64,000 nucleotides of DNA from Macrostomum lignano (lineage: Eukaryota), in NCBI GenBank assembly GCA_002269645.1, contig NIVC01000292.1, positions 682,001-746,000 on the forward strand, given 5' to 3'. The notes beneath the pieces are model-generated. The model ran no database searches. It was given only the letters and a program-made list of their open reading frames with translations, and had not been told where the DNA came from. The translations under genes and the position numbers were made by a program. Shown here one piece after another: positions 3,968-55,979 of the stretch. Every line of letters begins with the position of its first letter. Position 1 is the stretch's first letter.

Positions 3968-5128
3968 ATGTCCGACGCAGCTGGACTGCGACCTCCAGGG
4001 CCCATGGTATTCGATGAGGCCAAGTCAGAACGCTGGAGAAAATGGATCGGCGCATTCAATTTATACATGACCGCCACAAAGCGCGACAAGGAGGCTGACA
4101 GCATGAAGAATGCGATTCTGCTGACCGCCATCGGTGAAGAAGGCAGGGACATATTCGAGACATTCGAACTCTCTACTGACTCTGCTCACAAAGACATCAT
4201 CGACAAATTCGAGAAATTCTGCATTCCTCTGGACAGCGAAACATTTGATCGCTACAAGTTTAGAATGCGTAAGCAGGAGCAGTATGAAGATTTTGATCAC
4301 TTCATAGATGAGCTACGATTGTTAATAAAGCGATGCAGTTTTTCAAAGCCTAAAAATGGGCAATGCATTGACGATGCCATGCTTCGAGATCAGATAGTAT
4401 GTGGGGTTCATAATTCAGCACTCCGTGAACGGCTCCTTGAGGAAGAGAAGCTGACACTGGAAAAGGCTATTGTTCTGTGCCGTGCCACCGAAGCTTCAAA
4501 GATGCAAGCCAGGCAGATGACAGGTATAAAGAGTGAAAACAGAAACTCTGTCAGTCGAATTGTAAAAGACCCTGATCACAAGTTGCAGCAATCAACCAGA
4601 GCCAAGTCCAAGTCTATCACACGAAAGGCTCCTACAGGACAACAGGCATGCAGATACTGCGGCAAGAACCACAAATTTGGTCACACCAACTGCAGTGCCT
4701 ATGGCAAGACCTGCTTGAACTGTGGACAAAAGAACCATTTTAAGGCCATGTGCCGGAAAGAGAAAACAAAACAATCAAAACAGATTCGTACAGTTGAAGA
4801 TGAGCTTACTGACGTGACTGAAACATCGAATTCTTACCAAGCTGCTGCATGGGATGTAAGTAAATATTCTATGAATTATTATAATGGAAATGAAGTGAAA
4901 GCCGTTTCAAGAACAGTTGTGTCGCTAGACACTGAGTTTGGACACATCGTCAACTACAAAATTGATACCGGCGCTGATGTGAATATTATGTCCGAGAAAC
5001 GTTTAAGAACAATCACAGACAACCCATTAGAAAAAGACCACACCAGACTATCAGTGTATAACAATCAGACGCTTAATGTGAAGGCAAGATTAAATTGCGA
5101 CTCTCGCACAAAGACGCCGTGCATATAG
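3968..5128 (+). pseudogene. gag: Gypsy Gag (two CCHC knuckles) + aspartic protease
   Basis: CRYCGKNHKFGHTNC and CLNCGQKNHFKAMC knuckles, protease motif IDTGADV. A 1-nt deletion near 5082 shifts out of the protease frame (GKIKLRLSH..VEFTII..PLLA). Confidence 0.9.
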
Positions 5129-5236
5129 TAGAATTCACCATCATTGAGGACGACAATACACCTCTATTAGCGACCGACACAGCTGAGAAATTAGGCCTGA
5201 TTCAAATCCTCAACGTAACAAAGACTACAGATTTAA

Positions 5237-6595
5237 GTGCTGACGGAATCAAAGATCTTTAGGGAATACAGCGATGTGTTCGAAGGAATTGGATGTCTGC
5301 CTGGAGCGCATCACATTTCATTGAGAGAAGGTGCAATACCGAAAGTCCAAGGCCCAAGGAAAGTCCCATTTGCGGCTATGAAGGCTCTGCGTGAAGAGCT
5401 TGACCGTTTGCAGAGCCAAGGAATAATAACGAAATGCGACCAGCCGGCAGATTGGGTGTCCAATGTTGTTATCGTCTGGAAGAAGGATAACTGGATTAGA
5501 CTGTGCTTGGATCCAAAGAATCTAAATGATGATATTGTCAGAAATCGATACCCCATTCCAACTTATGACGAGATGATTAGCGAGATGACAGGAGCAAAAT
5601 ACTTCTCAACATTTGATGCTAAGTCTGGCTTCCATCAAGTTCAGTTGGATCAAGAAAGTTCACTTCTTACTGCATGTCACACTCCGTTTGGTGTTTACAA
5701 ACGGAATCGACTAGCTTTTGGTCTAAAGGATGCACCTGAAGCTTACCAAAGGCGCATCAAAGAAGAAGTGACAAGTCAAGTAGAAAAATCTGCTAACTAC
5801 ATCGATGACGTCATAGTATGGGGAAAGACTCGGGAAGAGCACGACCAAGCAGTTCGAAATCTTTTGGAGCAATGCAGGAAAAAGAACCTGACTCTGAACA
5901 GGCAAAAGACGAGCATTGGCAAAACCGAGCTTCGATTTCTTGGACACATACTAACTGACAAAGGTGTGAAAGTAGATCCACAAAAAGTAAACAGCATCAA
6001 AGAAATGCCGCACCCAAACAGTTTTGAACAGCGTGCTGAAAAGCAAGCGCAGCTCCAACGGTTTATTGGTAGTGCAAATTACTTGTCAAGATTCATAGCA
6101 AACTTTTCTGCACTGACAAGTCCTTTGAGGGAACTCATGAAGAAAGAATCCGAATGGGTGTGGACCAACGACCAAGAAAAGGCGTATCAAGGAATCAAGC
6201 AGTGCCTCTGCGAAGCACCTGTGCTTGCGCCATTTGACCCGAATAAAGACCTAATTTTATCTGTCGACGCCAGCAAAGATGGCTTGGGAGCAGCACTATT
6301 GCAGGAAGGACATGTCATTGAGTATGCATCATCAGCTCTAACATCCGCTCAAAAGAAATATGCCCAGATAGAGAAGGAAATGCTTGCGATAGTATTTGGC
6401 TGTCGAAGGTTCAGACAGTATCTCTGGGGACGTAGAGTCTCCGTCGAGTCTGACCACAAACCGCTGCAGTATATTATGAAGAAGCCAATGGATGAACTAT
6501 CGGCTAGAATTCAACGTCTGATACTCAAGATCCAAGAATTCGACTTAGACGTGCAATACAAACCGGAAGATATCTTTATTTGGCTGATACATTAA
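5237..6595 (+). pseudogene. pol: Gypsy reverse transcriptase + RNase H
   Basis: RLCLDPKNLN, FSTFDAKSGFHQ, YIDD and RNase H SVDASKDGLGA / YAQIEKEMLA / SDHKPL motifs. Frameshifts at about 5236 and 6565. Confidence 0.92.
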
Positions 6596-7867
6596 GCCGT
6601 GCTTTCTTGCAATCCGTGCATTCGGCGAGTGACATAGACTCCGAGCTTGAGAATCAAATCTTGGGTATCCAAAAGGTTTGTCTATCGGAAGACCTACTTA
6701 AGAAGATCCAGGAACACACATATGCAGATTCAACTTGCCATGCGATCAAGAATCGCATTCGCGAAGGTTGGCCGGAACTCAGAAACCAATTGCCAGAACA
6801 ACTAAAGCCTTTCTGGAATGTTCGTCACGATTTAGCCGAGCACGACAGATTAATTATGAAAACCAGCAAGATATTTATACCACTGACCATGCGCCACGAA
6901 TTCTTGAACATCATTCATGAAGGACATCAAGGCATTGAAAAAACACTGCTAAAAGCAAGAGGATCGGTATACTGGCCTCAGATGCGTCGGGACATCCAGA
7001 ACTACATAGCAGCATGCGATGCCTGCCAAAGCAGCCAATCCCGACCACAGAAAGAAACAATCATTCAAAGTCCGCATCCTGATTATCCATTTCAAGAGTG
7101 CGCGACTGACCTGTTCGATTTTAAAGGTCGAAAATTCATAGTTTTAGTGGACAGATACAGCCGATGGATCTGTGCAGATCCATTAAGATCAAATACAGCT
7201 GAGTTTGTTATCCTGCGATTAAAGAAATATTTCTCCACATTCGGAACACCTGAGAAGTTGCGATGTGACAACGGACCGCCATTCTCGTCCAACGCATTCC
7301 AATTATATGCTAAATCAAGCGGGATAGCGCTTGTAACATCATCACCAAGATATCCACAGTCCAATGGATTAGCGGAGCGAGCTGTGCAAACAGTGAAATG
7401 CTTCTTGAAAAAGAATGAAGACTTTGAAAAAGCAATGCTTCACTAATCACTACCGTAATACTCCGATTGAGCGTGGGTTACCGACCCCAGCAGAGCTACT
7501 GATGGGAAGGAAATTGAGGTACGAACTACCTGTACCAGTAATGGAATTGATACCAAAACGAACATGGACGAAGAATGATTTGGAAACACTGAACGCCATG
7601 CGAAGGAAGGACGCGATTCGCTACAACAGTACAGCTAGGGATTTGAAGCCACTGGAGACTGGAGAGCAAGTCTGGTTGTACGAGGACAAGAGACAGTGGA
7701 TTCCAGCAGAAATTCAATCGCGGGATCATATGGATCCAGAACGATCGTACCAAGTGCAAACTGCTGATGGTAAATGCTACAGAAGGAACCGACGATTTTT
7801 AGCACCCAGAGTTGCGAACTCCAGACTGTCTGCAATACCGAAACATCTAGCGCTACAGCGACAGTAG
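6580..7867 (+). pseudogene. Gypsy integrase (HHCC + DDE + GPY/F-like tail)
   Basis: HEGHQG..C..C zinc finger, TDLF, CDNGPPF, SNGLAERAV. A 7-nt insertion at about 7441-7447 creates a stop/frameshift; HYRNTP..TPAELLMGRKLR continues in another frame. Confidence 0.9.
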
Positions 7868-8123
7868 ATATCTCAGAGAGTCATCTGAAAGATTCAACTG
7901 CATCATCCGGAATTCAGCCAACTCATGAGCATCCAACAACAAGTAATCCTGCTGAAGATGCTAACCGACAAACGACCAATGCTGACACAAATGCGACATA
8001 TGTGACACGATCGGGTCGTACTGTCAAACAGACGAGATTCTATCAAGCTGTTTAATGATGAATTTTTTTGTTTATGAACAAACTATGCAATTAACGAACA
8101 ATGTTCTTTTGAAAAAAGGGGGA

Positions 8124-10589: not shown

Positions 10590-11622
10590 AACCATGCAGA
10601 TGGCATATTGGGCACAACTTCGGTTTCCCGCTCTAAATTATTTTCTGGCATTGGTTGCTAGAATAACTCGAGATGAAAGAAAAACTATATGCTGCGCTAT
10701 TGAAACGATGAAAAACGAAAAGGGGCCTCTTGAGCGAGATGCTCTGGGTCGATATATTTAATGAGCTGAGTGAAAGCGTACAATACACGTGAGCGTAATG
10801 TGGGGTGGGGCGATCAGTGAAGAATGAAAGTGGTGCGATCAATAATTAGGGACTGTACGTATGAGCAAAATAAATATGTTAGCCTAATTGAACATGTAGC
10901 TTTTGCAAACGAAAAGTTTAAGAAATACCACGAGACAGTGGCAGCTCCAGAACAGGCATTATTACTGTACTGTTTTAAAACCTGCGTTACTTATTTTTTC
11001 CGGCATTTCCAGATTAGGAATTCAGAAACCTGCTTCATTTCCCTGCTTTGGACTATTACCTTGTGTCACTCGTTGACTTTTTACCCCTGTGACCAGTTCG
11101 TTTCGCACGATTCGTTGAACAGGGTGAAGTTGAGCCACGCCTTGCGTGTCGAGAAAGTAAACTTTCTTTAGGCCGGAGCTCTTCCTGTCAACTATTTTCA
11201 ACGCTAGCACGTTTCCTTTGCGCATAAACGTAACCGGATCTAGCTTCGCAAAGACAATACAGTTTAATGCCATATCGCGCTTTCTTAAATGGAATATATT
11301 GACGAAATGTGACACGACCTCTGAACAGGACTAGCTCTTCGTCGACACTAATTTCTTTTTCTGGCATGCACACACTGCGACAAATCTCAGCAACACGCGT
11401 AATAAATTGTCTTGCCTTTGCTAGCGGGTCGTTTCCATCGAAGTTGTTGCAGTCATAGAAACGCAATTGGCTACTGATCTGTTGGTACCTGTCCCTTGTC
11501 AGACAAGCGAGTTGTTGGAAGAAAGGTGTTGCGTAGAAATCATCTCTGCTCCAATGGTTGGCAATCTCGGGCTTTTTAACTATTCCCGATATGTAAAGCG
11601 ACATGGCGACAAACTTTTTCAT
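10590..11622 (-). pseudogene. piggyBac (PGBD-like, DDE_Tnp_1_7) transposase remnant with internal deletion
   Basis: SVDEELVLFRGRVTFRQYIPFKKARYGIKLYCLC..SGYVY motif. An abrupt junction at about 11225 leads to a later segment (RKGNVLALKIVDRK..VYFL). A degenerate Cys-rich tail (CQK..GKPKLCPIC) lies near 10610-10670. Confidence 0.8.
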
Positions 11623-13079: not shown

Positions 13080-13819
13080 ACCCGTTTAGATGCTTCTAAA
13101 GGAGTTATCAGAATCTCTGAATGGATTGTGTTATTGTATTTTTCAGCAATATTCGGTAATATGTGGAGCCACTGCTGGTTTTCTTGTAGATCAAATTCAA
13201 ACCAGAGTTTATTTGTGAGAGTGCGATTAAATCTCTCAATCATTGCATTCTTGGACTCGCCATAAATTGAGAACATCTTGTTTATATATTCACCATTTTC
13301 ATCCTTCTTTCTAACATTGTCTTTTGAAAACGAGTATAGCTTGCACATATGCTGGTTATAAAACTCCTTGCCTTCATCAACACAATGTCTCTCTGATCGT
13401 CTTCCTGATTCCTTAAATATTTTCTGGAAAGCTTCTGCAACTTCCGCTCCCGTCTTTGTTTTCAAAGGAACTGCCCAAGCGAAACGTGTGAAACCATCTA
13501 TAACAGTGAGAGCATATTTGTAACCTCTTTCAGGTGGTAGGATAATGATATCTGCATGCCAAATTGTGTCTTTTGTATAGTGAATCATTTTTCTAAACAG
13601 TTTTGCTTTTCTGTATTCCCTAAGTAATTTCACAGCATCTTCGTAGCTTAGACCATTGCCGTATATGGTTAGACAGTCTATGCAATTGTTGGGGTTGTGA
13701 GTATAAATTCCTAATCCAAACCGAACTTTAGCCTTAATAAGAAGCTTTACTAGATTTCGAATAAGTCTCTCTTTCACAGACAAGTCACTGGTTGGAATCG
13801 CATCTAAATCAGTTATCAT
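13080..13819 (-). pseudogene. Polinton-type DDE (rve) integrase fused to the C-terminal helices of a PLA2-like domain
   Basis: WHADII / YKYALTVIDGFTRFAWAVPLKTKTG / VDEGKEFYN / MIERFNRTL / YNNTIHS..TP retains the D-D-E triad. The N-terminus ..KHIADEKMITDLDAIP..KAKVRFGLG matches the end of Polinton PLA2-like proteins. Truncated 3' by the 14-bp array. Confidence 0.85.
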
Positions 13820-14929
13820 TTTTTCATCAGCAATGTGCTTCTTTGCTAGAGCTTCCTCTGGATTTGAAGATGTTTTTTCAGCAGTCTGTAATTGGATTGA
13901 GTCTCTTGTCTAGATTTGGACCTGTCAGTTGTTCCTCAATCTTTCGAAAGAGGCTGGACTTTATCTTAAGGCTTCATCAGGATTGACCAGATCCTTCAGC
14001 CCCACCTCCATAAAGTCTCTGAACCTTCTCCATATCCTTGTCAACTACGTTTTTCGGACGTACCTTAGCTACTCGAACAAAGTTCGGACTTAGGAGCTTG
14101 GCTGCGGATTTCCACCATGTCCTCAAGCTTGTTACCATTGGGAACAGGAATTACCTGAGTTGCTTCAGAAGATTTCTCAACTGAAGTGGTGCTTGAGGCT
14201 TTTGAAGGAGTTCCCGCAATTTGAAGGTGTCGCCATTCACTAAGCACTTGTTTAATGTTGGTTATAATGTTTTTGTATTGATCCCCATAAAAAAATTTCA
14301 ATGCAAATTCTTCTGTTTTAAGGGTGATTCCATTGTCTAGTAAAATATTCTTAGGTTCCTTTGTAGTTTTATTGATGCATACATAATACAACTGATAGGT
14401 GGGATAAGAATTTTTATAGTCTAATAGTTTCTAGTAGTAACTTTCACGACTTGAGGAATTGTCTGTGTTATCAGAAGATTTAAGCTCTAATGCAATCTTT
14501 CGCTCAACTTGAACTAGGTCTATCTTTTTTACCTTCTCGAGCCCAAAATAACTTTCTGCTAAAACTTCATATAGTCTGCCTAGTCTCATTTGAATAATTT
14601 TAATCTTGTGTGAAATTATTAGCTCTTCTTGAAATAAATCGCAAAGAATTTGGTCATCCCCCACCTTGTCGTCAATTGGTTTCAGGAGAATTTCTCCAAT
14701 TGTGTTCTCCATTCTCCATTTTACTATAGAAAATTTAACAAGTGCTTTATTCGATGACTAGCAAGGACATTGACTTCCTCACTCAGGCCACAACGTAACC
14801 TGCGAAAGAATACCCTGGAATATGAAATTCGGCAGGATATTTTCCAGTGGAGAAAATAGGTGGCAAATGAGTCATTGCGGTCTGAATATCTAAAGCACAA
14901 CCAAGAAATAGTGGTTTATTGAAGGCCAT
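13820..14929 (-). pseudogene. PLA2-like (parvoviral PLA2 / PLA2X-type) gene split by an 878-nt insert and lacking the catalytic HD segment
   Basis: 5' part GCALDIQ..EFHIPGYSFAG (14929-14800) and 3' part GPNLDKRLNP (from 13921) together give the PGY-x-F-x-GP..LDKRL signature. The region expected to hold H-D is deleted. Confidence 0.65.
14233..14712 (-). pseudogene. PD-(D/E)xK restriction-endonuclease-like ORF with one in-frame stop
   Basis: ORFs 14431..14712 and 14065..14391 are in the same frame, separated by a single TAG (14431-14433). Motif QMRLG....IDLV....ALELKSSDNTDNSSS, recognised by resemblance to giant-virus/Eco47II-like nucleases (not database-verified). Confidence 0.6.
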
Positions 14930-15526
14930 TTTGTAGCAGAAAAATTTTGTTAAAGATTTTACATTTACTACTTGCATAAGTAGAATGGTTTGGTGAAAAT
15001 GTCATTTATTTTGCCCACAGTCATTGCACGGCCTTCTATTAAATTCTGTTATGAAATTAGAGGCATGCTTTTATTTTCCATTTCTAAAACGAGGAAAAAG
15101 AAGAAATTTCTCGTCGCGAATTCTATCTAAAGAATGGTAAACATTAAAGAAATTATTCTAAAAAGAGATATACTTTCTATTTAGTAGGCGTTAAAGGAAA
15201 AAACACAACATAGAGAGTTTTACTCAAAAAAATTCCAACGCATTGGAAAAGTTTGACCTTCATATGTCATTGAAGATTAGCCCAAACTCCGACGTCGGCT
15301 TTTCATTTCTTGCTGAGGAGAAATGAAAGGTAGTCCCATTGTATTAGGTTAGGGAGTAGGAGGGTATGTGGATTTTTTTGAAAGAGAGTGCATGACTGGA
15401 TGTGGAAAGAGATTTTCAGTACAGTGGAACCCGCGCAGTGCAGCCAGAGGAATAGAATAGGTAAGTTCCCTTTTTCAGGACAATAGAGACTGCGTACATC
15501 GACAATGAATTGCCCAGTATTTGAGG

Positions 15527-17507: not shown

Positions 17508-17816
17508 GTCACTGACTCATGCCAATCTGTCACTGACTCATGCCATTCTGTCACTAACTCATGCCAATCTGTCACTGACTCATGCCAATCTGTCACTGAC
17601 TCATGCCAATCTGTCACTGACTCATGCCAATCTGTCACTGACTCATGCCAATCTGTCACTGACTCATGCCAATCTGTCACTGACTCATGCCAATCTGTCA
17701 CTGACTCATGCCAATCTGTCACTGACTCATGCCAATCTGTCACTGACTCATGCCCATCTGTCACTGACTCATGCCCATCTATCGTTGACTCATGCCAGTC
17801 TGTCACTGCAGAAATT
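17507..17816. repeat. 21-bp minisatellite (ctgtcactgactcatgccaat), about 14 copies, starting at the kinase stop codon
   Basis: Tandem units; the first unit on the minus strand contains the kinase TGA. Confidence 0.93.
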
Positions 17817-18264
17817 TGTGCTCCAGCAGCTCCGCGGTGGCCGCTCGCCTCCTCGGCTCCCTCTGGATGCACCGTCCGTAGAAGTCCCTCAGCAGGGCGG
17901 AGGTCCCGGCCGGCAGCTGCGGCATGTCGTGTCTTTGAATCCTTAGTGGGATCTGCTGCCACATGAGCTGCCAGTTCGGAGGCTTCATCTCCAGCATCTC
18001 GAACACGGAGCAGCCGAAAGCCCACACGTCAGTCTTGGGTGAGTACACGATTCTTCCGTCCTCACTGAACAGCTCGGGAGCCATGAAGTAGGGGGTGCCG
18101 CAATCCCTCTTGGTGCTGCGCATCGTGGCGAAGACCTCCTTGGCGAGACCGAAGTCGATCAGCTTGATGAGGCCCTCGTTGGTGAGCATCAAGTTGGAGC
18201 ACTTGATGTCACGGTGCAGGGTGACGGGACTGCGGCTGTGCAGGAAGTTAAGCGCTGTGCAGAT
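17803..18264 (-). CDS. Ankyrin-kinase gene 2, exon 3: kinase C-lobe
   Basis: Acceptor ..aactcacag|ATC. Motifs [37 protein letters not shown]; stop TGA at 17803-17805. Phase 0 matches the upstream exon. Confidence 0.9.
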
Positions 18265-18304
18265 CTGTGAGTTGGGGAGCGATTGAGCAGGGGTGGTGTG
18301 GGAT

Positions 18305-18924
18305 CTGAGCTGCTTGGAGAAGTCCCTCACTGCTGCATGGGGTGGTGTAGGATCTGAGCTGCTTGGAGAAGTCCCTCACTGCTGCATGGGGTGGTGTAGG
18401 ATCTGAGCTGCTTGGAGAAGTCCCTCACTGCTGCATGGGGTGGTGTGGGATCTGAGCTGCTTGGAGAAGTCCCTCACTGCTGCATGGGGTGGTGTGGGAT
18501 CTGAGCTGCTTGGAGAAGTCCCTCACTGCTGCATGGGGTGGTGTGGGATCTGAGCTGCTTGGAGAAGTCCCTCACTGCTGCATGGGGTGGTGCGGGATCT
18601 GAGCTGCTTGGAGAAGTCCCTCACTGCTGCATGGGGTGGTGTGGGATCTGAGCTGCTTGGAGAAGTCCCTCACTGCTGCATGGGGTGGTGTGGGATCTGA
18701 GCTGCTTGGAGAAGTCCCTCACTGCTGCATGGGGTGGTGTGGGATCTGAGCTGCTTGGAGAAGTCCCTCACTGCTGCATGGGGTGGTGTGGGATCTGAGC
18801 TGCTTGGAGAAGTCCCACACTGCTGCATGGGGTGGTGTGGGATCTGAGCTGCTTGGAGAAGTCCCTCACTGCTGCATGGGCTGGTGTGGGATCTCACCTG
18901 CTTGGAGAAGTCCCTCACTGCTGC
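18305..18924. repeat. 49-bp minisatellite made of the exon 3' end plus the intron start; 12 copies plus the authentic junction
   Basis: Units start at 18305 + 49n up to the real donor at 18893-18897. Confidence 0.95.
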
Positions 18925-19285
18925 CTCATCGAAGGGCCGTCGCTGCAGCTGCATCAGCTCAAAGAGGCTGTGGCCGGAGATCAGCTCGGTGAAGATGCAC
19001 AGCTTGCCCTTCTTGCGCTCAGACTTGAGGAACTGCACGATGTTCGGGTGCCGGATGGCCTTCAGGACGGAGATCTCCGCGTTCTCCTTCTCGATGGCCT
19101 CGTCCATCAGCCTGGCGCTGCTGGCACCTTCCAGCCTGACGATCTTGACAGCCACAGTCTGGCGCTTATCGGTGAACGCCTTGTACACCTGGCCGAAGCC
19201 GCCTGCTCCGAGCAGCTGCTTGTTGCCGTCACCATCGAGAAGGAAGTCCCAGCTGGAGAAGGCGGGGTCCAGAGACGGCCTCGCA
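18898..19285 (-). CDS. Ankyrin-kinase gene 2, exon 2: STE (MAP3K/STE20-like) kinase N-lobe
   Basis: Acceptor ctctttcag|, LGAGGFGQVYK, VAVK, HPNIVQFL, donor CAG|GTGAGA. The 388-nt length keeps frame. Confidence 0.9.
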
Positions 19286-19440
19286 CTGAAAGAGGAGAGG
19301 GTTGGGAGACTGAAGCAATGCGGGATTGCTGCAGAAATGGGGAACTGAGCAGGCAGGGAGAGTCTGTCAGGTGATCATTGTGAGCCACTCTTAGCTGAAC
19401 CGAATGCAATTTCCCAAGTGAAAAGTGGAAGACGGCCTGC

Positions 19441-20363
19441 CTTGCTGACGGAGTCTCCTCGGACTGCAGCTGCAAGCCCGACATCGCCTGGCCCAGCCTC
19501 CGCTCTTCTCCATCAGGCTGCTGCCGCCGCTGCTCTGCGATCCACTCCCGAATCCGAGCTCCGTGCTGAGAGTTCCGCTCTGCGTAGTCGGCCACCGACT
19601 CGCCACCGGAATCGAGAAGGTCGAATGGGGCGAGGCCGAGAGAGTCCGCGATGAGGCGGAGCGAGTCCAGGTCCTGATGCTGAGCAGCCAGGTGAGCAGG
19701 TGTGGCTCCGTTTGAGTCTTTTTCCAACAGACAGGCCGCACCGAGCTCAGAGATGAGCCACTTGAGACAGGAATTGGTCTCATTCATAGCAGCAAAGTGA
19801 ATGGCAGTGCGTTGTACGCAGCCTGGCTGATGAAAGCAGTCGGATCCGAGGACTGATTTGAAGAACTGCATGGAATCGGCGCCCTGCTTCCAAGCAGCGA
19901 GATGGACGGGAGTGTTTCCTTGTTGGTCTCGAACGGAGAGACAGTCGGTTCCGCACTCGTTCACCAGCCACTTGAGACAGGAGTTGGTCGCTTCATTCTC
20001 AGCGGCAAAGTGAATAGCAGTGCGTTGGAGTCGGCCAGGCTGACGGAAGCAGTCGGATCCGAGGCTGCGGTGAATGAGCTCCATCCATGACACATCTCGA
20101 CACAAGGCAGCCAGGTGCACAGGAGTGTTGCCTCTTTCGTTGGTGCAGGTGAGGCAGTCGGGTCCCAGTTTCTTAATAAGAGCCTCGAAGCAGCGGAGAC
20201 CGTCGGATAGAAATGTCACGTGATGAGCAATGGACTGCTTTAACTGGTTGATGATGACTTCGAAGTTGGCGTCGAGCTGCCGGCAGAGGGGGAAGAGGCG
20301 GCCTGCGTCCTCGGCACGGAGGGCTGCAGCGACTTCTTTGCTCACTGAGGCTTGCCGGGCCAT
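19441..20363 (-). CDS. Ankyrin-kinase gene 2, exon 1: about 6 ankyrin repeats + linker (whole protein about 590 aa)
   Basis: ANK motifs homologous to 358..2342. A phase-2 donor is required; the best positional candidate is AAG|GCAGGC (GC-AG) at 19441/19440, with a weak GT alternative at 19465/19464. Confidence 0.8.
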
Positions 20364-24762: not shown

Positions 24763-24870
24763 CGCAGATCTCGCAGGCAATCCAATGCTACTCAGTTATG
24801 CTACTCTACTGCCTACTTCCAGTAGTGCAAGTACAGCCAGTCAGACAAACACCGAGCAGCAGCCGCTCAC

Positions 24871-25688
24871 CTGCTGGTCGGTGAGGTGAGCAAACGGCTG
24901 CTCCCTGCAGAAGGTGAGCATCTCCCAGAGCGTCACGGCGAAGCTCCAGACGTCGCTGCGGCAGGAGAAGCGGCCGTGCAGGACGGCCTCCCAGGCCATC
25001 CAGCGGATCGGCAGCGAGGCGCCGCGACCTCCGTCCAGCCTGCAGTAGTCAGCAGAGTAGAGAGGCTGAGACATGCCAAAGTCGCAGATCTTCACCTGGT
25101 AGTCTTCACCCAGCAGGCAGTTGCGGCAGGCCAGGTCTCGGTGCACCAGCTGCAGGGACTCCAGGTACTTCATGCCGCTGGCAATCTGAGCTGCCAGGTA
25201 GATGAGGCAGCCGTGAGACAGCGGTGGCTCAGGTGATGCTGCTGCAGCGGCTGCCCTGGAGCGCAGGAACTGGTGCAGGTCCCCATGCTGCATGAACTCC
25301 ACCAGGATGCACTGCTGCGCCGCTGCGTCCTTGGTTGCCACGCCCAGCACCCTGACGATGTTCGGGTCCTGCAGGCGCGCCAACAGCCGCATCTCGCGCC
25401 GGAAGTCGCGGCGCGCCTGCGGCCCCGCGCCAGGCCGGAGAGTCTTGGCCGCCACCAGCAGCAGCCGGCCGCCAGGAGCGGCCCACTCGGCCAGGCGGAC
25501 CTCGCCGAACTGGCCGGCACCAAGGCGCTCTTTCAGCGCCACGGAGCCCGGCGCCACCTCGAGAGCGGCGACCGCGTCGGAGTCGGCGCCGCCGTCCAGA
25601 TCGTCAGGGACTCCAGCGACACTGCCGCAGTCCATGGCGGAGGCGAGGTCCGCGTCCGGACAGGCGTAGACTGTGTTGCCCGAGCAGC
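24871..25688 (-). CDS. DDR: DDR exon 7 (tyrosine kinase domain)
   Basis: Phase-1 acceptor gives IQ-G-CSGNTVYA (a DDR juxtamembrane signature). Motifs LGAGQFGEV, HRDLACRNCLL, DFGMS, LPIRWMAWE, SDVWSFAVTLWE; donor CAG|GTGAGC. Confidence 0.93.
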
Positions 25689-50757: not shown

Positions 50758-52278
50758 ATGGCTTCTAACCGAAGTAACAAACCGGCTGTGGATGACACAG
50801 TGCCTCCGGCCTCGGCTGGGGCCGTGGACTCCTCGGCCATACCACCTGCTACCATCGGGGACGCCTCGGCGAGACCCGTGGAGCCAACTCTGAGCGGTGC
50901 CTCCGAGAAGACACCTGCTACTCCAGCTGCTAAGAAACGCAGCACCACCTCTGGAGCTGCCCGCCGTCGACTTAACAAGGCGAGGCGGGCCAAGGAGGGC
51001 GGAAGCCAAACCGGTGCCAGGGGCCAACGGCCCGCGGCAGCGGAAGCTTCCCAGTCTGGGGCGGTGGCGGAAGAGGGCCTCGAGCCCACGGAAGCCCCTG
51101 CCCAGGATAGGGAGGCCGATGCAGCCGGGAGGGTGGACAGCCCACCTGAAGAAAGCTCCACTGACCCCCGGGCCTCCTACGCTGATGCGGCAAAGAGGCA
51201 ACCGGCGGTTGTCATCCTGGGAAAGGACGCGCGCCTGTCTCCCGATCAGCTGAAGCAGGTGAGAAGTGCCGTTGATGGCCTCCTGTGGAAGCAAACTCTG
51301 AAGGGCACGCCTCTGAACATTCATTCGAATGCGACGAGGGACTCGTGCCTTCTCATTTGGCCCAGTGATGCTGACTCGGGTCGGCGGCTCCTTGAGCTGC
51401 TGCCCGAGCAGAGCTGGGACCTCAACCTAGCCTTCTGCAGAGAGGACGAGCGCCCCCGGACCAAGAGGCATCGAATCTGGGTCCCGGCCAGGAGCGTTGT
51501 TACCTCTGCTGACGAGCTCCGGAAAGGACTGCTAGCAGTCACGGTTGAGCTTCCCGCCGCGGGCCTAGTGGTGCATGACACCCTTAAGCGCACCGACGGC
51601 ACTGGCTTCACAGCCATCCTGGGGCTGTCGGACGCCTGGATGAGGCGTTATCCACACGGCAGCTTCATCAACGTCGGCCTTTGGAAGCTGCGCATCCGCT
51701 CCTACGAGGCCGACCCTCCCCGTGGCAGTGAGCAGGGCGGGCGGGATGCGGAGGCGGCCGGGGCCGAGGCGCAAGCCTCTGCTCAGACTGCCAAAGCAAA
51801 CCGCCCTGCCCGGCAGCACGGCCGCGCGGGCAAAGCTGAGCGCGCTGCTGAGGGCGGAGGCGACCGACGCCCGGCGCGTAGCACCAAGCGGCGCGGCCTG
51901 TACCAGCGTGCAGCTGAGGCAGTCCGTACCGCCAAAATCTCCCAGCTGAGGCGAGAGGTCGCCGGGACGCCTAGGCGCACCAGTTCGTCCAGGGAGGGTG
52001 GGGACGTCCCAGCTGGGCCCAACCCCTCGGGGCAGGGCCGACTGGAGACGGACCCGCCTGCCCAGGCGGCTGGCTGCTCCAGGGCATTGGGCCAATCTGA
52101 GGCGGAGGACCCCATGGATGGTGGGCAAAGGGCGGCGAACGCTGCCTACTGCCTTCCGGCCAATCGGGGGCCTTTTGCTGAAGAAGAGCCCATGGACACC
52201 GGCGACCCCGACCCGAAGCCGGTGAGCGCCGAGGAGGAGGAGGAACTCCTGGCGGCTGCAACATCCGATCTGCAATGA
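50758..52278 (+). CDS. LINE ORF1 (506 aa from ATG 50758); basic/low-complexity N-terminus, no CCHC knuckle seen
   Basis: Long ORF directly upstream of and overlapping ORF2; its position and composition fit an ORF1 nucleic-acid chaperone. Confidence 0.8.
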   Translation: MASNRSNKPAVDDTVPPASAGAVDSSAIPPATIGDASARPVEPTLSGASEKTPATPAAKKRSTTSGAARRRLNKARRAKEGGSQTGARGQRPAAAEASQSGAVAEEGLEPTEAPAQDREADAAGRVDSPPEESSTDPRASYADAAKRQPAVVILGKDARLSPDQLKQVRSAVDGLLWKQTLKGTPLNIHSNATRDSCLLIWPSDADSGRRLLELLPEQSWDLNLAFCREDERPRTKRHRIWVPARSVVTSADELRKGLLAVTVELPAAGLVVHDTLKRTDGTGFTAILGLSDAWMRRYPHGSFINVGLWKLRIRSYEADPPRGSEQGGRDAEAAGAEAQASAQTAKANRPARQHGRAGKAERAAEGGGDRRPARSTKRRGLYQRAAEAVRTAKISQLRREVAGTPRRTSSSREGGDVPAGPNPSGQGRLETDPPAQAAGCSRALGQSEAEDPMDGGQRAANAAYCLPANRGPFAEEEPMDTGDPDPKPVSAEEEEELLAAATSDLQ

Positions 52279-55200
52279 TGCCAACGACTACCTGGTGTCT
52301 GCAGATCAACACCCAGCACTGCGTGGCGGCGTCGGTCAACCTGATGCGCACGGCAGAGCAACAGCTTCCGGGCCTGGTCTTCGTACAGGAGCCCTGGATG
52401 ACTAAAGGTAAGCCAAATAATGTGCCATCTGGCTACCACTGTTTTTGCATGGCGGGCTCTCAGCCTCGCCCAAGATCTCTGGTCTTTGCTGCAAAAGCTT
52501 TTGAGGCATGGATGAGACCTGATCTCTCGACTGGGGACATCTGTGTTGTTCAAATCAATAACCTCATTCCCAATAAACCTGTGCTGGTAGCTTCTGCCTA
52601 TTTCCCGGGCGATGCCCCAGTTGTCTGCGACGCGTTAGTCAACCTTACTGACTATGCTGCGTCCCATCGGTTCGAGCTGCTCATTGCAGGGGATGTGAAC
52701 GCACACCACCTGCATTGGGGCAGCAAGAACATCAATAGCAGAGGCGAGGAGCTGCTGGCCTATGTCAGCAGCACTAACCTCAACTTCTGTAACGTGGGCA
52801 ATGCACCAACGTTCAATAATGGGCGGTGGGCCGAAGTCATCGACACCACCATCGCCTCACCCGGACTGCTTTCCGCAGTTACGGGCTGGCGAGTGTGGGA
52901 CGAGGACTCGCTCTCGGACCACCGCTTTATCCGCTTTTGCATTGGGCCGACCAAGCAAAAGCCTAAGGTCACTTGGAGTCGGAACGTCAGAAACACCGAT
53001 TGGGCCGCCTTTGGCTCGAAGCTGAGCCGCGGCCTTCGGGATCTTGACCCCCCCAGTGACCTCTCTGACTGCCAGGTGGTGGACGATCTCGCCTCCTCCC
53101 TGGGCGGGGCGATCACCACTGCCTTTGAAGCAGCCTGCCCCCTAAAGGCCTATAAAGGCAAGAAATCTGCTCCCTGGTGGAACCCAGAGCTCGGGGCCCT
53201 TCGGCGCCGAGCCAGGACCCTCCAAAGGCGAGCGCTCAAAACCAAAGACCCATCTGACAGAGAGGCCTATACCCGTGCGATCCACGAGTTTAAGGGCCAA
53301 GTCAGAAGGGCCAAGACGGCCAAGTGGCGCCAATATTGCGAAGGGCTTGAGGGCTCTCGCCCCGTAGCCCGCGTGGTTAAGGCACTCACTAATGACCGTT
53401 TTTCTAAACTCTCTGTTGTGAAGAGACCTGACGGCTCGGTCACAGAGAGTTCGGAAGAGACTCTAGAGCTCATGCTCAACAGTTTTTTCCCTAAATCTCC
53501 GACTCAGCAGGGCCCGCCCGACCACACAGTGGGAGGGCAAGGCCTAGCAAAGTCTATGATCACCAAAGACCGCATTATTAGAGCGGCAAGGTCCTTTAAC
53601 CCGTTCAAGGCGCCTGGGCCCGACGGCATCTACCCAGCGTTCTTGCACGAGGCGGTGAAAAACCACCGCTTCCTGGACCTGCTCTGTCGTCTCCTTCGAG
53701 CTTGTATGGAGCTGGGCTATGTACCAGTTGCATGGAGAGAGGCCCGGGTGGTCTTTATCCCCAAGCCTGGAAAGAGCGACTACCAATCGGTGAAGGCCTT
53801 CAGGCCTATCAGCCTCACTTCTTTCTGCCTCAAGCTCCTCGAGAGACTGGTGCTTTGGCGCCTACTTTCGGTCGAGCTGAAGCGCTTCCCACTCTCGCAG
53901 AACCAGCACGCCTTCCGCGCGGGCAGGTCAACCGAGAGTGCTCTCCATGTCATTGTTGACTTCCTGGAGAGGGCCGTTCTTGGCAGCGGCTTTGCCCTCT
54001 CGCTTTTCCTGGACATTGAGGGGGCCTTCGACAACGTCATCTTCGAGGCCTTTTGCAGAGCCCTGGAATCCAGGGCCACGCACCCTCACCTTGTCCGGTG
54101 GATCATGTTCATGATCCGAAACCGCACTGTTGTGGCCCACCTGAGCGGCAGCTCTCTTTCGGTGCCTGTCCTGAAAGGGGGCCCCCAGGGCGGCGTTCTC
54201 ACCCCCGTTCTCTGGAACATGGTCATGGATGAGTTGCTTTGCAGTGATCTCCACGACCCCATTCTCAAGGTGGGCTATGCCGATGATGTGACCGCGATAT
54301 GCGCGGGCCCCTCGGTTGATACCATCAGAGACCTTCTGCAGGGCTTTCTGGGACGAGCGGAGCGTTGGGCAGACCAATGTGGCCTTAGACTCTCAGAGTC
54401 GAAAACCACAGCAGTCATGTTTACCAACAAACTGCTCTGGACCATTAAGCCCCTCACCCTCTATGGAAAGAATATTTCCATGGAGAAGCAGGTCCGCTGC
54501 CTGGGCCTCACTCTGGACCACAGGCTTAACTGGACTCCGCACATTCAAACTAAAGCCAAAAAAGCCCTGGCTGTACTGGCTCAGATCAGGCGCGCCGTGG
54601 GCACCACCTGGGGGCTCACCCCCAGGAAGCTGTGGTGGATTTACACTGCCATCATCCGCCCCTCGATCAGTTACGCCAGCCTCGTGTGGGCTAGCGGCCT
54701 GAGCGTCAAGAGCAACCTCGACGCTCTCTACAAAATCCAGGGCAGAGCCTGCCGCATGACTATGGGCGCTCCACCCTCTACTCCTTTTGAAGGCATGAAT
54801 GCCTTCCTCTGCGCCCCTCCTTTGGATATTTATATCAAAGGAGAGGCGGCGAAGAGCACCCGGCGTCTTCTGGATGCTGGGGTGGCCTTCAAGAAAGTGC
54901 GGGCCTTTAAGAAGCGGTCGCTTATCCCGCACTCTGACCTCTGCCTCAAGGCTCTCGAGGAGTGTGGCGGGCTCAACATCCTCACGGACTCGATCCCAGC
55001 CACCCTTCTCCTGAGCCAAAGGTATAAGGTCACCATTCAGCCTCGACACGAGGCGAGTGACAGCTGGAGCGACTCTGAAGTCCACTGTTACACTGACGGC
55101 TCTATGAGGCATGGTCTTTCAGGCTTCGGAGCTTGCGTCTTCTTCAAGGGAGAAGTGGTGTGGAGCTACTCCCAGCACACTGGGCTCAACTCCAGTGTTT

Positions 55201-55979
55201 TTCAGAGCGAGGTGCTTGCCATCAGCTCCTGCGCGGCAGAGCTGCGCCGAAGGCAGCTTAGCGGCCGGAAATTTATTTTTCACTCTGACAGCCAAGCAGC
55301 CCTTCGGGCCCTCTGCCGCAGCACCGCCAGCTCCAGGTCCGTCCTGGACTGCAACACCCAGCTCAACGGGCTTGCGCTAGGCAACCAGGTGGAGCTCAGA
55401 TGGATCCCGGGCCACGCCGGCTTCCTCGGCAACGAGCGCGCTGACCTGCTGGCCAAGGCTGGCTCCGCCGGCGCGCTATTGGGGCCGGGCCCGGGTGCCC
55501 CCATCCCCGCCTCGGTGATCAATTCCCGCGTTAAGCGCTGGGCTGACTCCGAGCATCTCCGCAGGTGGCACGACACCCGGAATTGTAGGCAATCCCGTGC
55601 TGCCGTCCCCTGTCCCTCTCCTCTCCTGCGTAGAGCCCTCCTCAGGCTCAACCGCAGAGACCTCAGAGCAGTTAGCATGGCCCTCTCCGGGCATGGCTGC
55701 TTCTCTCGCCACCGCTTCCTTCAGGGCCAAGTACCCGAGGAGCGGTGCCCCTTCTGCCGCTCAGGCAGTGAAAACGCCGAGCATTTTATCTGCCACTGCC
55801 CGGTTTTCACCAGGGCCAGGCTTACTCACCTCGGGCCAAACCCGGTTCTCTCCGACGTTTGCAGGCCCGAGAGCATCCCACTGCTCGCCCGGTACCTCAG
55901 GGACACCGGACGAGCTGATTTCTTCCCCACCGTCGGTGAGGAGGACCGCGCTGCAGGCGAGACCGACGGGTCCCCCTGA
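52275..55979 (+). CDS. pol: LINE ORF2: AP endonuclease - reverse transcriptase - RNase H - CCHC
   Basis: QEPW, AGDVNAHH, SDHRFI (APE); LDIEGAFD, PQGGVL, YADD (RT); YTDGS, SEVLAI, SDSQAAL, WIPGH..GNERAD (RNase H); CPFC..E..EHFICHC. Confidence 0.96.
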   Translation: MMPTTTWCLQINTQHCVAASVNLMRTAEQQLPGLVFVQEPWMTKGKPNNVPSGYHCFCMAGSQPRPRSLVFAAKAFEAWMRPDLSTGDICVVQINNLIPNKPVLVASAYFPGDAPVVCDALVNLTDYAASHRFELLIAGDVNAHHLHWGSKNINSRGEELLAYVSSTNLNFCNVGNAPTFNNGRWAEVIDTTIASPGLLSAVTGWRVWDEDSLSDHRFIRFCIGPTKQKPKVTWSRNVRNTDWAAFGSKLSRGLRDLDPPSDLSDCQVVDDLASSLGGAITTAFEAACPLKAYKGKKSAPWWNPELGALRRRARTLQRRALKTKDPSDREAYTRAIHEFKGQVRRAKTAKWRQYCEGLEGSRPVARVVKALTNDRFSKLSVVKRPDGSVTESSEETLELMLNSFFPKSPTQQGPPDHTVGGQGLAKSMITKDRIIRAARSFNPFKAPGPDGIYPAFLHEAVKNHRFLDLLCRLLRACMELGYVPVAWREARVVFIPKPGKSDYQSVKAFRPISLTSFCLKLLERLVLWRLLSVELKRFPLSQNQHAFRAGRSTESALHVIVDFLERAVLGSGFALSLFLDIEGAFDNVIFEAFCRALESRATHPHLVRWIMFMIRNRTVVAHLSGSSLSVPVLKGGPQGGVLTPVLWNMVMDELLCSDLHDPILKVGYADDVTAICAGPSVDTIRDLLQGFLGRAERWADQCGLRLSESKTTAVMFTNKLLWTIKPLTLYGKNISMEKQVRCLGLTLDHRLNWTPHIQTKAKKALAVLAQIRRAVGTTWGLTPRKLWWIYTAIIRPSISYASLVWASGLSVKSNLDALYKIQGRACRMTMGAPPSTPFEGMNAFLCAPPLDIYIKGEAAKSTRRLLDAGVAFKKVRAFKKRSLIPHSDLCLKALEECGGLNILTDSIPATLLLSQRYKVTIQPRHEASDSWSDSEVHCYTDGSMRHGLSGFGACVFFKGEVVWSYSQHTGLNSSVFQSEVLAISSCAAELRRRQLSGRKFIFHSDSQAALRALCRSTASSRSVLDCNTQLNGLALGNQVELRWIPGHAGFLGNERADLLAKAGSAGALLGPGPGAPIPASVINSRVKRWADSEHLRRWHDTRNCRQSRAAVPCPSPLLRRALLRLNRRDLRAVSMALSGHGCFSRHRFLQGQVPEERCPFCRSGSENAEHFICHCPVFTRARLTHLGPNPVLSDVCRPESIPLLARYLRDTGRADFFPTVGEEDRAAGETDGSP

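Follow-up and report, generated by a model that had tools for sequence, protein, structure and literature searches.

An Eco47II-family nuclease frame embedded in the group I intron of an animal's Polinton, with a candidate GGNCC specificity

The window, a 64,000-nucleotide stretch of DNA, carries a decayed 1.85-kb remnant of a Polinton, in which a group I intron splits the phospholipase-A2-like/integrase gene and itself holds a broken nuclease gene (Table 1). The frame belongs to the Eco47II family of PD-(D/E)xK proteins, with a modelled fold nearest to that of EcoO109I. From comparison with the other copies in the same genome we think it fairly probable that working copies cut GGNCC, and that the element would be protected from its own enzyme by loss of sites together with the intron, and not by a methylase. 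By its placement the nuclease resembles homing endonucleases, and by its apparent specificity it resembles restriction enzymes.

Table 1. Coordinates of the intron, the nuclease frame and the flanking exons in the window.
Feature	Position	Strand	Basis or remark
First 44 codons (5' exon) of the phospholipase-A2-like/integrase gene of the Polinton, up to the Gly of the split Gly-Pro	14798..14929	-	translation; start of intronless alleles
Group I intron, 872 nt, U before the 5' splice site, last base G	13926..14797	-	borders from intronless alleles
Predicted P1 helix, exon end paired with internal guide sequence	14784..14802	-	RNA fold of the 5' end
Eco47II-family nuclease domain	14233..14712	-	follows the 5' helices of the intron and precedes its ribozyme core; TAG at 14433-14431
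Continuation of the nuclease frame across the ribozyme core, to a stop	14065..14232	-	similar tails in 8/15 homologs
Rfam RF00028 match, catalytic core P3-P9	13935..14299	-	88.1 bits, gathering score 50, E 2.8e-22
3' exon, rest of phospholipase-like domain and rve integrase; internal deletion, truncated by a minisatellite	13084..13925	-	PF00665, 38.5 bits
Sole GGNCC of the remnant, in the 3' exon	13918..13922	.	absent from the stop-free copies examined

The nuclease frame, its intron and the carrier element

The earlier note on this DNA had joined two open reading frames into one frame of about 160 residues broken by a single TAG, and the letters translate as quoted there, on the minus strand, into 160 codons with the TAG as codon 94. 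The frame does not end at 14233, as had been supposed; its stop comes only at codon 216 (14067-14065), and the added stretch is a translation of the ribozyme core. With X placed at the TAG, the window protein scored 31.6 bits against Pfam PF09553, RE_Eco47II (E 1.6e-7, cut-off 25.9). For the sister copy L002 the score was 30.1 bits, and for a copy of the second of the two families described below (family B) it was 23.8 bits, just below the cut-off. A structure model of a natural stop-free sister copy, built from a 17-sequence alignment (pLDDT 92), matched EcoO109I with Z 10.4 and an rmsd of 3.1 over 157 residues, followed by an entry at Z 6.5 and by AvaII at 6.2. In the Foldseek search against the PDB the best E-value fell to the DdmD nuclease domain (TM 0.43), with EcoO109I higher by TM-score (0.71), and the search against viral models gave no match at E 0.001 or better. 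Atlas returned mostly unnamed viral clusters, with the RE_Eco47II and EcoO109I clusters at 0.90, which we take as a lead only; NCBIfam has no family for the nuclease. Residues D65, E76 and K78, the D...ExK core, are invariant in all 17 aligned relatives. Together with the PF09553 score and the EcoO109I-like model fold, this bears out the PD-(D/E)xK, Eco47II-like assignment of the earlier note.

The intron lies between the Gly and Pro codons of a phospholipase-A2-like motif. In natural intronless alleles, present at 18 of 20 loci of the first family (family A) chosen because no nuclease match lay there, the exons adjoin directly and in frame, and the product of an intronless allele scores 35.3 bits with PF08398 (cut-off 23.9) and also exceeds the cut-off for rve. 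All 28 candidates scored in the genome lay above the RF00028 cut-off, a number that is a lower bound. When the structure that Rfam assigned to the window copy in its alignment was applied to 12 related sequences, 97.4% of the cells were paired and 8 of 29 pairs had changed on both sides, including 4 of the 6 in P7. The U at the 5' site, a predicted P1 and the terminal G are all present in family-A introns. Among the public runs that contain a sister copy none is recorded as RNA; spliced RNA was not found in the contigs of eight that we guessed to be RNA, and a probe search of the genome detected no intronless junction with an intron-type 5' exon. Two candidates for splice evidence were set aside: the intron-skipping joint X1/X10/X18 is the common intronless DNA allele, and X7, located at the predicted 5' site, was rejected because two DNA copies match it.

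Several variants of the intron were also recorded. Most of the family-B introns examined (e.g. L071-L090, L234-L250) end in A, not the canonical G, before the 3' exon. A second intron type, which we take to be an IE-like subgroup, occupies the same site at 7 of 35 family-B loci (L030, L138, L231-L233, L246, L249), with peripheral arms alike and a different core; L030 gave no RF00028 match, and the apparent 3' exon of this second type seems short of two motif codons. Palindromic inserts of ~15-35 nt, present in some copies and missing from others, occur within loops of the intron and near gene starts (window 14045-14085, L002, L012, L014, L015), and are possibly a family of tiny mobile hairpins.

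Alignment of the window with sister copies covers only 13084-14935. A full-length sister on contig C2696 is 17.8 kb long. Its terminal inverted repeats measure 582 bp, its insertion has duplicated 6 bp of target, and it encodes a double-jelly-roll capsid, an A32 ATPase, a D5-like primase-helicase and an rve integrase. A polymerase B match (PF03175) was located inside a family-B element (C166); candidate family-A frames gave none. The host of the element is an animal. Wnt gave 86 matches in the genome, some of whose exons share contigs with element copies (e.g. C67, C506), and a sister copy or part of one was found in 20 of the 24 listed runs, from 8 studies and all under one organism code. A contaminant or chimeric join, raised by the earlier note as what might undo its reading, is at odds with 108 nuclease matches on many contigs and with the terminal repeats and target duplication.

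The remnant has a second copy, L016 (C1810), with a stop in its nuclease and the same extra GGNCC and flanking minisatellites, which is a duplicate or allele of the window locus. Towards the C-terminal end of a large element frame at L091:4074-5552 (minus strand), PF02945, recombination endonuclease VII, was matched with 32 bits. Elsewhere the window holds ankyrin-repeat frames and protein-kinase pieces, likely host genes (354-2426, 17803-20363, 24841-25635), an LTR retrotransposon with reverse transcriptase, RNase H and integrase (3968-8055), a PF13843 transposase fragment (11188-11622), and a LINE with endonuclease, reverse transcriptase and RNase H in one long open frame (50758-55979).

Two families, four allelic states and their relatives

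Intact copies, which the earlier note proposed to look for, do exist: 41 of the 108 genome matches are stop-free from residue 1 to at least 151, and by hand count they divide into 15 at 84-90% identity (family A) and 26 at 60-64% (family B). The nuclease gene is embedded in the intron in family A. In family B it is free-standing, a short way upstream of the phospholipase-integrase gene, whose intron occupies the same site and contains no ORF. All 35 of the family-B loci examined that have a free-standing nuclease carry an intron at the site, a weak result because only 3 of 17 family-B loci chosen for lacking the nuclease are intronless, the other 14 having the intron. Intronless junctions, searched with two slightly different patterns, make up 23 of about 153, and 20 of them belong to family A; GGNCC is kept in all 23, none of which lies on a contig with a nuclease match. 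The 20 in family A have one common junction sequence on different backgrounds, which fits either resistance or a gene flow that runs the opposite way. Integrase relatedness and intron state do not go together, one intron-bearing copy being 97.5% identical to intronless ones and 95-96% identical to other intron-bearing ones, and such mixing shows exchange between copies, in one direction or the other. Four states, with the nuclease embedded, free-standing, missing from a retained intron, or the intron itself missing, coexist in one animal genome. L132, L133 (C2328, C629:47666) and C215 are family-B copies in which the nuclease gene is split by an insert of ~580 bp or the 5' exon is divergent.

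A profile search found 315 proteins at E 0.001 or better. The nearest relatives of the nuclease are 43-60% identical to it, and 8 of 15 have a translated intron-core tail. For one close homolog the DNA was examined: the unrelated metagenome contig L111, at 55% identity, has the intron layout, motif and split point of family A, with an Rfam score of 80.6 bits. Giant-virus relatives are about 30% identical. The relatives on viral contigs, many of which belong to giant-virus bins, form complete R-M pairs: at 62 of 63 a C5 methylase lies within 1.5 kb. One of them matches a bacterial plasmid protein annotated as Eco47II family that is itself beside a methylase. Metagenome and viral contigs scanned with single proteins gave no match. 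One protein, P0033 (542 aa), has an N-terminal part fused to the nuclease family that was recognised by eye as C5-methylase-like.

A quick tree with SH-aLRT support and a midpoint root, for which 68 rows were selected by hand from the proteins and loci, placed the Polinton and tail-bearing proteins in a 30-row group (support 96) apart from 16 methylase-paired viral rows. Since the tree is rooted only at its midpoint, a giant-virus donor is no more than a possibility. The description of the gene as giant-virus-like stands as regards the relatives at about 30% identity, but the nearest ones are intron-linked and are not the methylase-paired giant-virus genes, and no donor was identified. Family B nests among intron-embedded relatives with moderate support (84-86), and therefore its free-standing nuclease may represent a derived rather than an ancestral state. 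Between families A and B dN/dS is 0.13-0.15, and in four within-family pairs it is 0.14-0.25; three of the closest pairs, with few changes, gave 0.7-1.2. A comparison with the metagenome copy was saturated and was discarded.

GGNCC depletion and the methylase search

Gly-Pro codons always spell GGNCC. The uninterrupted Gly-Pro junction of the element accordingly reads GGNCC, which is the site given for Eco47II (PMC10305163); that given for EcoO109I is RGGNCCY (PMC3089450). Across seven nuclease-bearing elements GGNCC occurs once against 120 expected from dinucleotide counts, with eleven other gapped palindromes present, and it is missing from twelve further stretches in which 76 were expected. 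Among 256 gapped motifs none is more strongly depleted, in either family (0 vs 21.1 and 0 vs 17.4; log10 P -9.1 and -7.6). All four middle bases are absent, and GGWCC and RGGNCCY were ruled out as the site since every middle-base variant is missing. At the protein level Gly-Pro was found 0 times against 7.5 expected, and Pro-Gly 9 times, in 11 frames.

Only the two nuclease-carrying families show the purge; it is seen neither in host DNA nor in other Polinton-like families. In the surroundings of nine further polymerase-B matches, host DNA included, there are 256 GGNCC against 327 expected, and a related AT-rich element with an intact motif contains 18 against 16 and 16 against 7. The corresponding values are 101 against 122 for the host flanks and 219 against 277 for the whole window. 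Methylase-paired viral relatives are not purged and are only mildly low in GGNCC, with an observed/expected ratio of 0.64, beside 0.57 for CTNAG and 0.64 for GTNAC. Copies without the nuclease are nearly as purged as those with it (10 vs 138 expected, with a mask that missed junction sites), and therefore the purge is no proof that the nuclease caused it. The junction of intronless copies is the sole GGNCC in a 10-kb stretch at 2 of 17 loci, and otherwise one of two to five, flanks included. The extra GGNCC of the window remnant is common to one duplicate and counts as one event; the presence of the site in a remnant with a broken nuclease is no more than suggestive. Since the copies are related, neither the GGNCC counts nor the junction counts are independent trials.

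No methylase family was found in 10 scanned frames of the full-length element, and among frames of 80 aa or more only 2 of 21 had isolated short methylase-motif matches. A genome-wide search for C5 methylases with PF00145 gave 12 matches, none on contigs with nuclease elements. The remark that no methyltransferase partner was visible in the window can thus be extended to the full-length element. With no cognate methylase found adjoining it, the nuclease locus falls outside the type II R-M systems.

Proposed mechanism, alternatives and significance

We propose that, while the element is actively replicating, the protein would be translated from a start codon of its own and would cut the five-base site GGNCC; the Pfam family and the fold (PF09553, EcoO109I) point to enzymes with a GGNCC core. 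The conserved Gly-Pro of the phospholipase motif would not be open to silent recoding because its codons always contain the site. The intron would break this GGNCC in the DNA, and splicing would restore Gly-Pro in the RNA. An intronless sister would have a rare or unique GGNCC because the rest of the element is purged, and a cut at that site could be repaired from an intron-bearing copy, which amounts to homing. Rival DNA, with its sites not purged, would suffer many cuts and so be excluded. As with homing endonucleases, the ORF lies inside the intron and the insertion disrupts the predicted target. DNA conflict, suggested in the earlier note as a role, is plausible on this account. Host DNA, being rich in GGNCC (219 in the window), would be at risk and must somehow be spared. 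The wider proposition, to which we give an even chance, is of an animal virus lineage with methylase-free restriction, in which a five-base cutter is combined with a genome emptied of GGNCC, a self-splicing intron acts as an immunity factor at the one site that function demands, and the loss of sites is enough to make a homing endonuclease out of a restriction enzyme, its specificity unchanged.

The same facts could arise if the protein were a conventional homing endonuclease with a long site, built on a restriction fold, and if an outside cutter such as the R-M system of a co-infecting giant virus had forced the purge, the intron first being kept as a shield. Eco47II-like R-M pairs are indeed common in viruses (the 62 of 63 loci above), nuclease-free copies are purged too, intronless alleles survive beside intact nuclease genes, and a long site would spare host DNA; there is also a precedent in I-Ssp6803I (PMC3384342). 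However, the predicted restriction fold is compact, at 160 aa and apparently without an added DNA-binding domain, the purge is confined to two nuclease-carrying families, and no such giant virus is known here, so that we regard this explanation as rather unlikely. Degradation of host nuclear DNA in a lytic phase, with homing as a side effect, is less probable still. It would agree with unpurged host DNA and with the failure to find a cognate methylase, and chlorovirus enzymes serve in that role. Against it, many copies have no nuclease gene, there is no sign of a lytic phase here, and the R-M system of Marseillevirus is described as not degrading host DNA (PMC7253447). That the frame is a stand-alone giant-virus restriction gene endogenised in a block, or a contaminant, seems to us very improbable: it has viral relatives at about 30% identity, but it is nested in an intron with exact borders, it is one of 108 matches, the element has terminal repeats and a target duplication, and the nearest relatives are intron-linked. 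The earlier note was right about the Eco47II type, but this is no free gene; it is intron cargo in a Polinton phospholipase-integrase gene. Site loss and the intron as joint protection from a GGNCC cutter remains the reading that we prefer.

Eco47II, EcoO109I and the giant-virus R-M pairs, of which that of Marseillevirus has been proposed to exclude other viruses (PMC7253447), are like the present nuclease in Pfam family, fold, D...ExK core and inferred site, whereas here no methylase was found, the gene lies in or beside an intron, and the carrier is purged. I-Ssp6803I is described as a cyanobacterial PD-(D/E)xK homing endonuclease that is a tetramer with a 23-bp site and a PvuII-like fold (PMC3384342). 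It likewise represents a restriction fold recruited for intron homing, but the signal here is for a 5-bp site, the fold is of Eco47II/EcoO109I type, and the setting is an animal nuclear element.

Group I introns in Polinton-like viruses are reported only for Paulinella, Desmodesmus and Rhodomonas in the available text of PMC12220804, where the Rhodomonas intron of 309-376 bp lies in a short unannotated gene, with no nuclease assigned. Those protist introns share with ours the RF00028 class, a protein gene as the insertion site and an integrated Polinton-type element; as far as that text goes, the animal host, the phospholipase-integrase gene and the embedded nuclease set the present case apart. 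The portion available of the adintovirus paper describes the phospholipase gene and makes no mention of an endonuclease or group I intron (PMC8502044), and that of a nematode Polinton preprint brings in group I introns solely to suggest where an HNH domain may have come from (10.1101/2023.08.22.554363). Our literature search, which covered papers and not their supplements, found group I introns in Polinton-type elements reported for protists only and none for animal nuclear DNA. It gave no match for site avoidance without a methylase or for an intron in animal viral elements, matters on which the supplementary intron tables of PMC12220804 could bear. Phages offer collaborative homing (PMC11296320) and an intron nuclease turned on a rival phage (PMC12908238), to which the free-standing (B) and embedded (A) nucleases at one site, and a possible use against rivals, can be likened. 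In contrast, the phage nucleases, as those sources present them, act in bacterial viruses, each on a single gene whose allele lacks the intron, and a genome-wide purge of a short site does not figure in the text available.

What is found here is a group I intron in animal nuclear DNA together with a restriction-type nuclease, and there would be a selective reason for keeping the intron, which does away with a cut site beyond the reach of recoding. For a nuclease of 160 aa, the specificity is predicted from genome statistics alone. The findings suggest a route by which a restriction enzyme may become a homing endonuclease through a change in the target genome and not in the enzyme, and this transition is testable because all of its states coexist in one genome.
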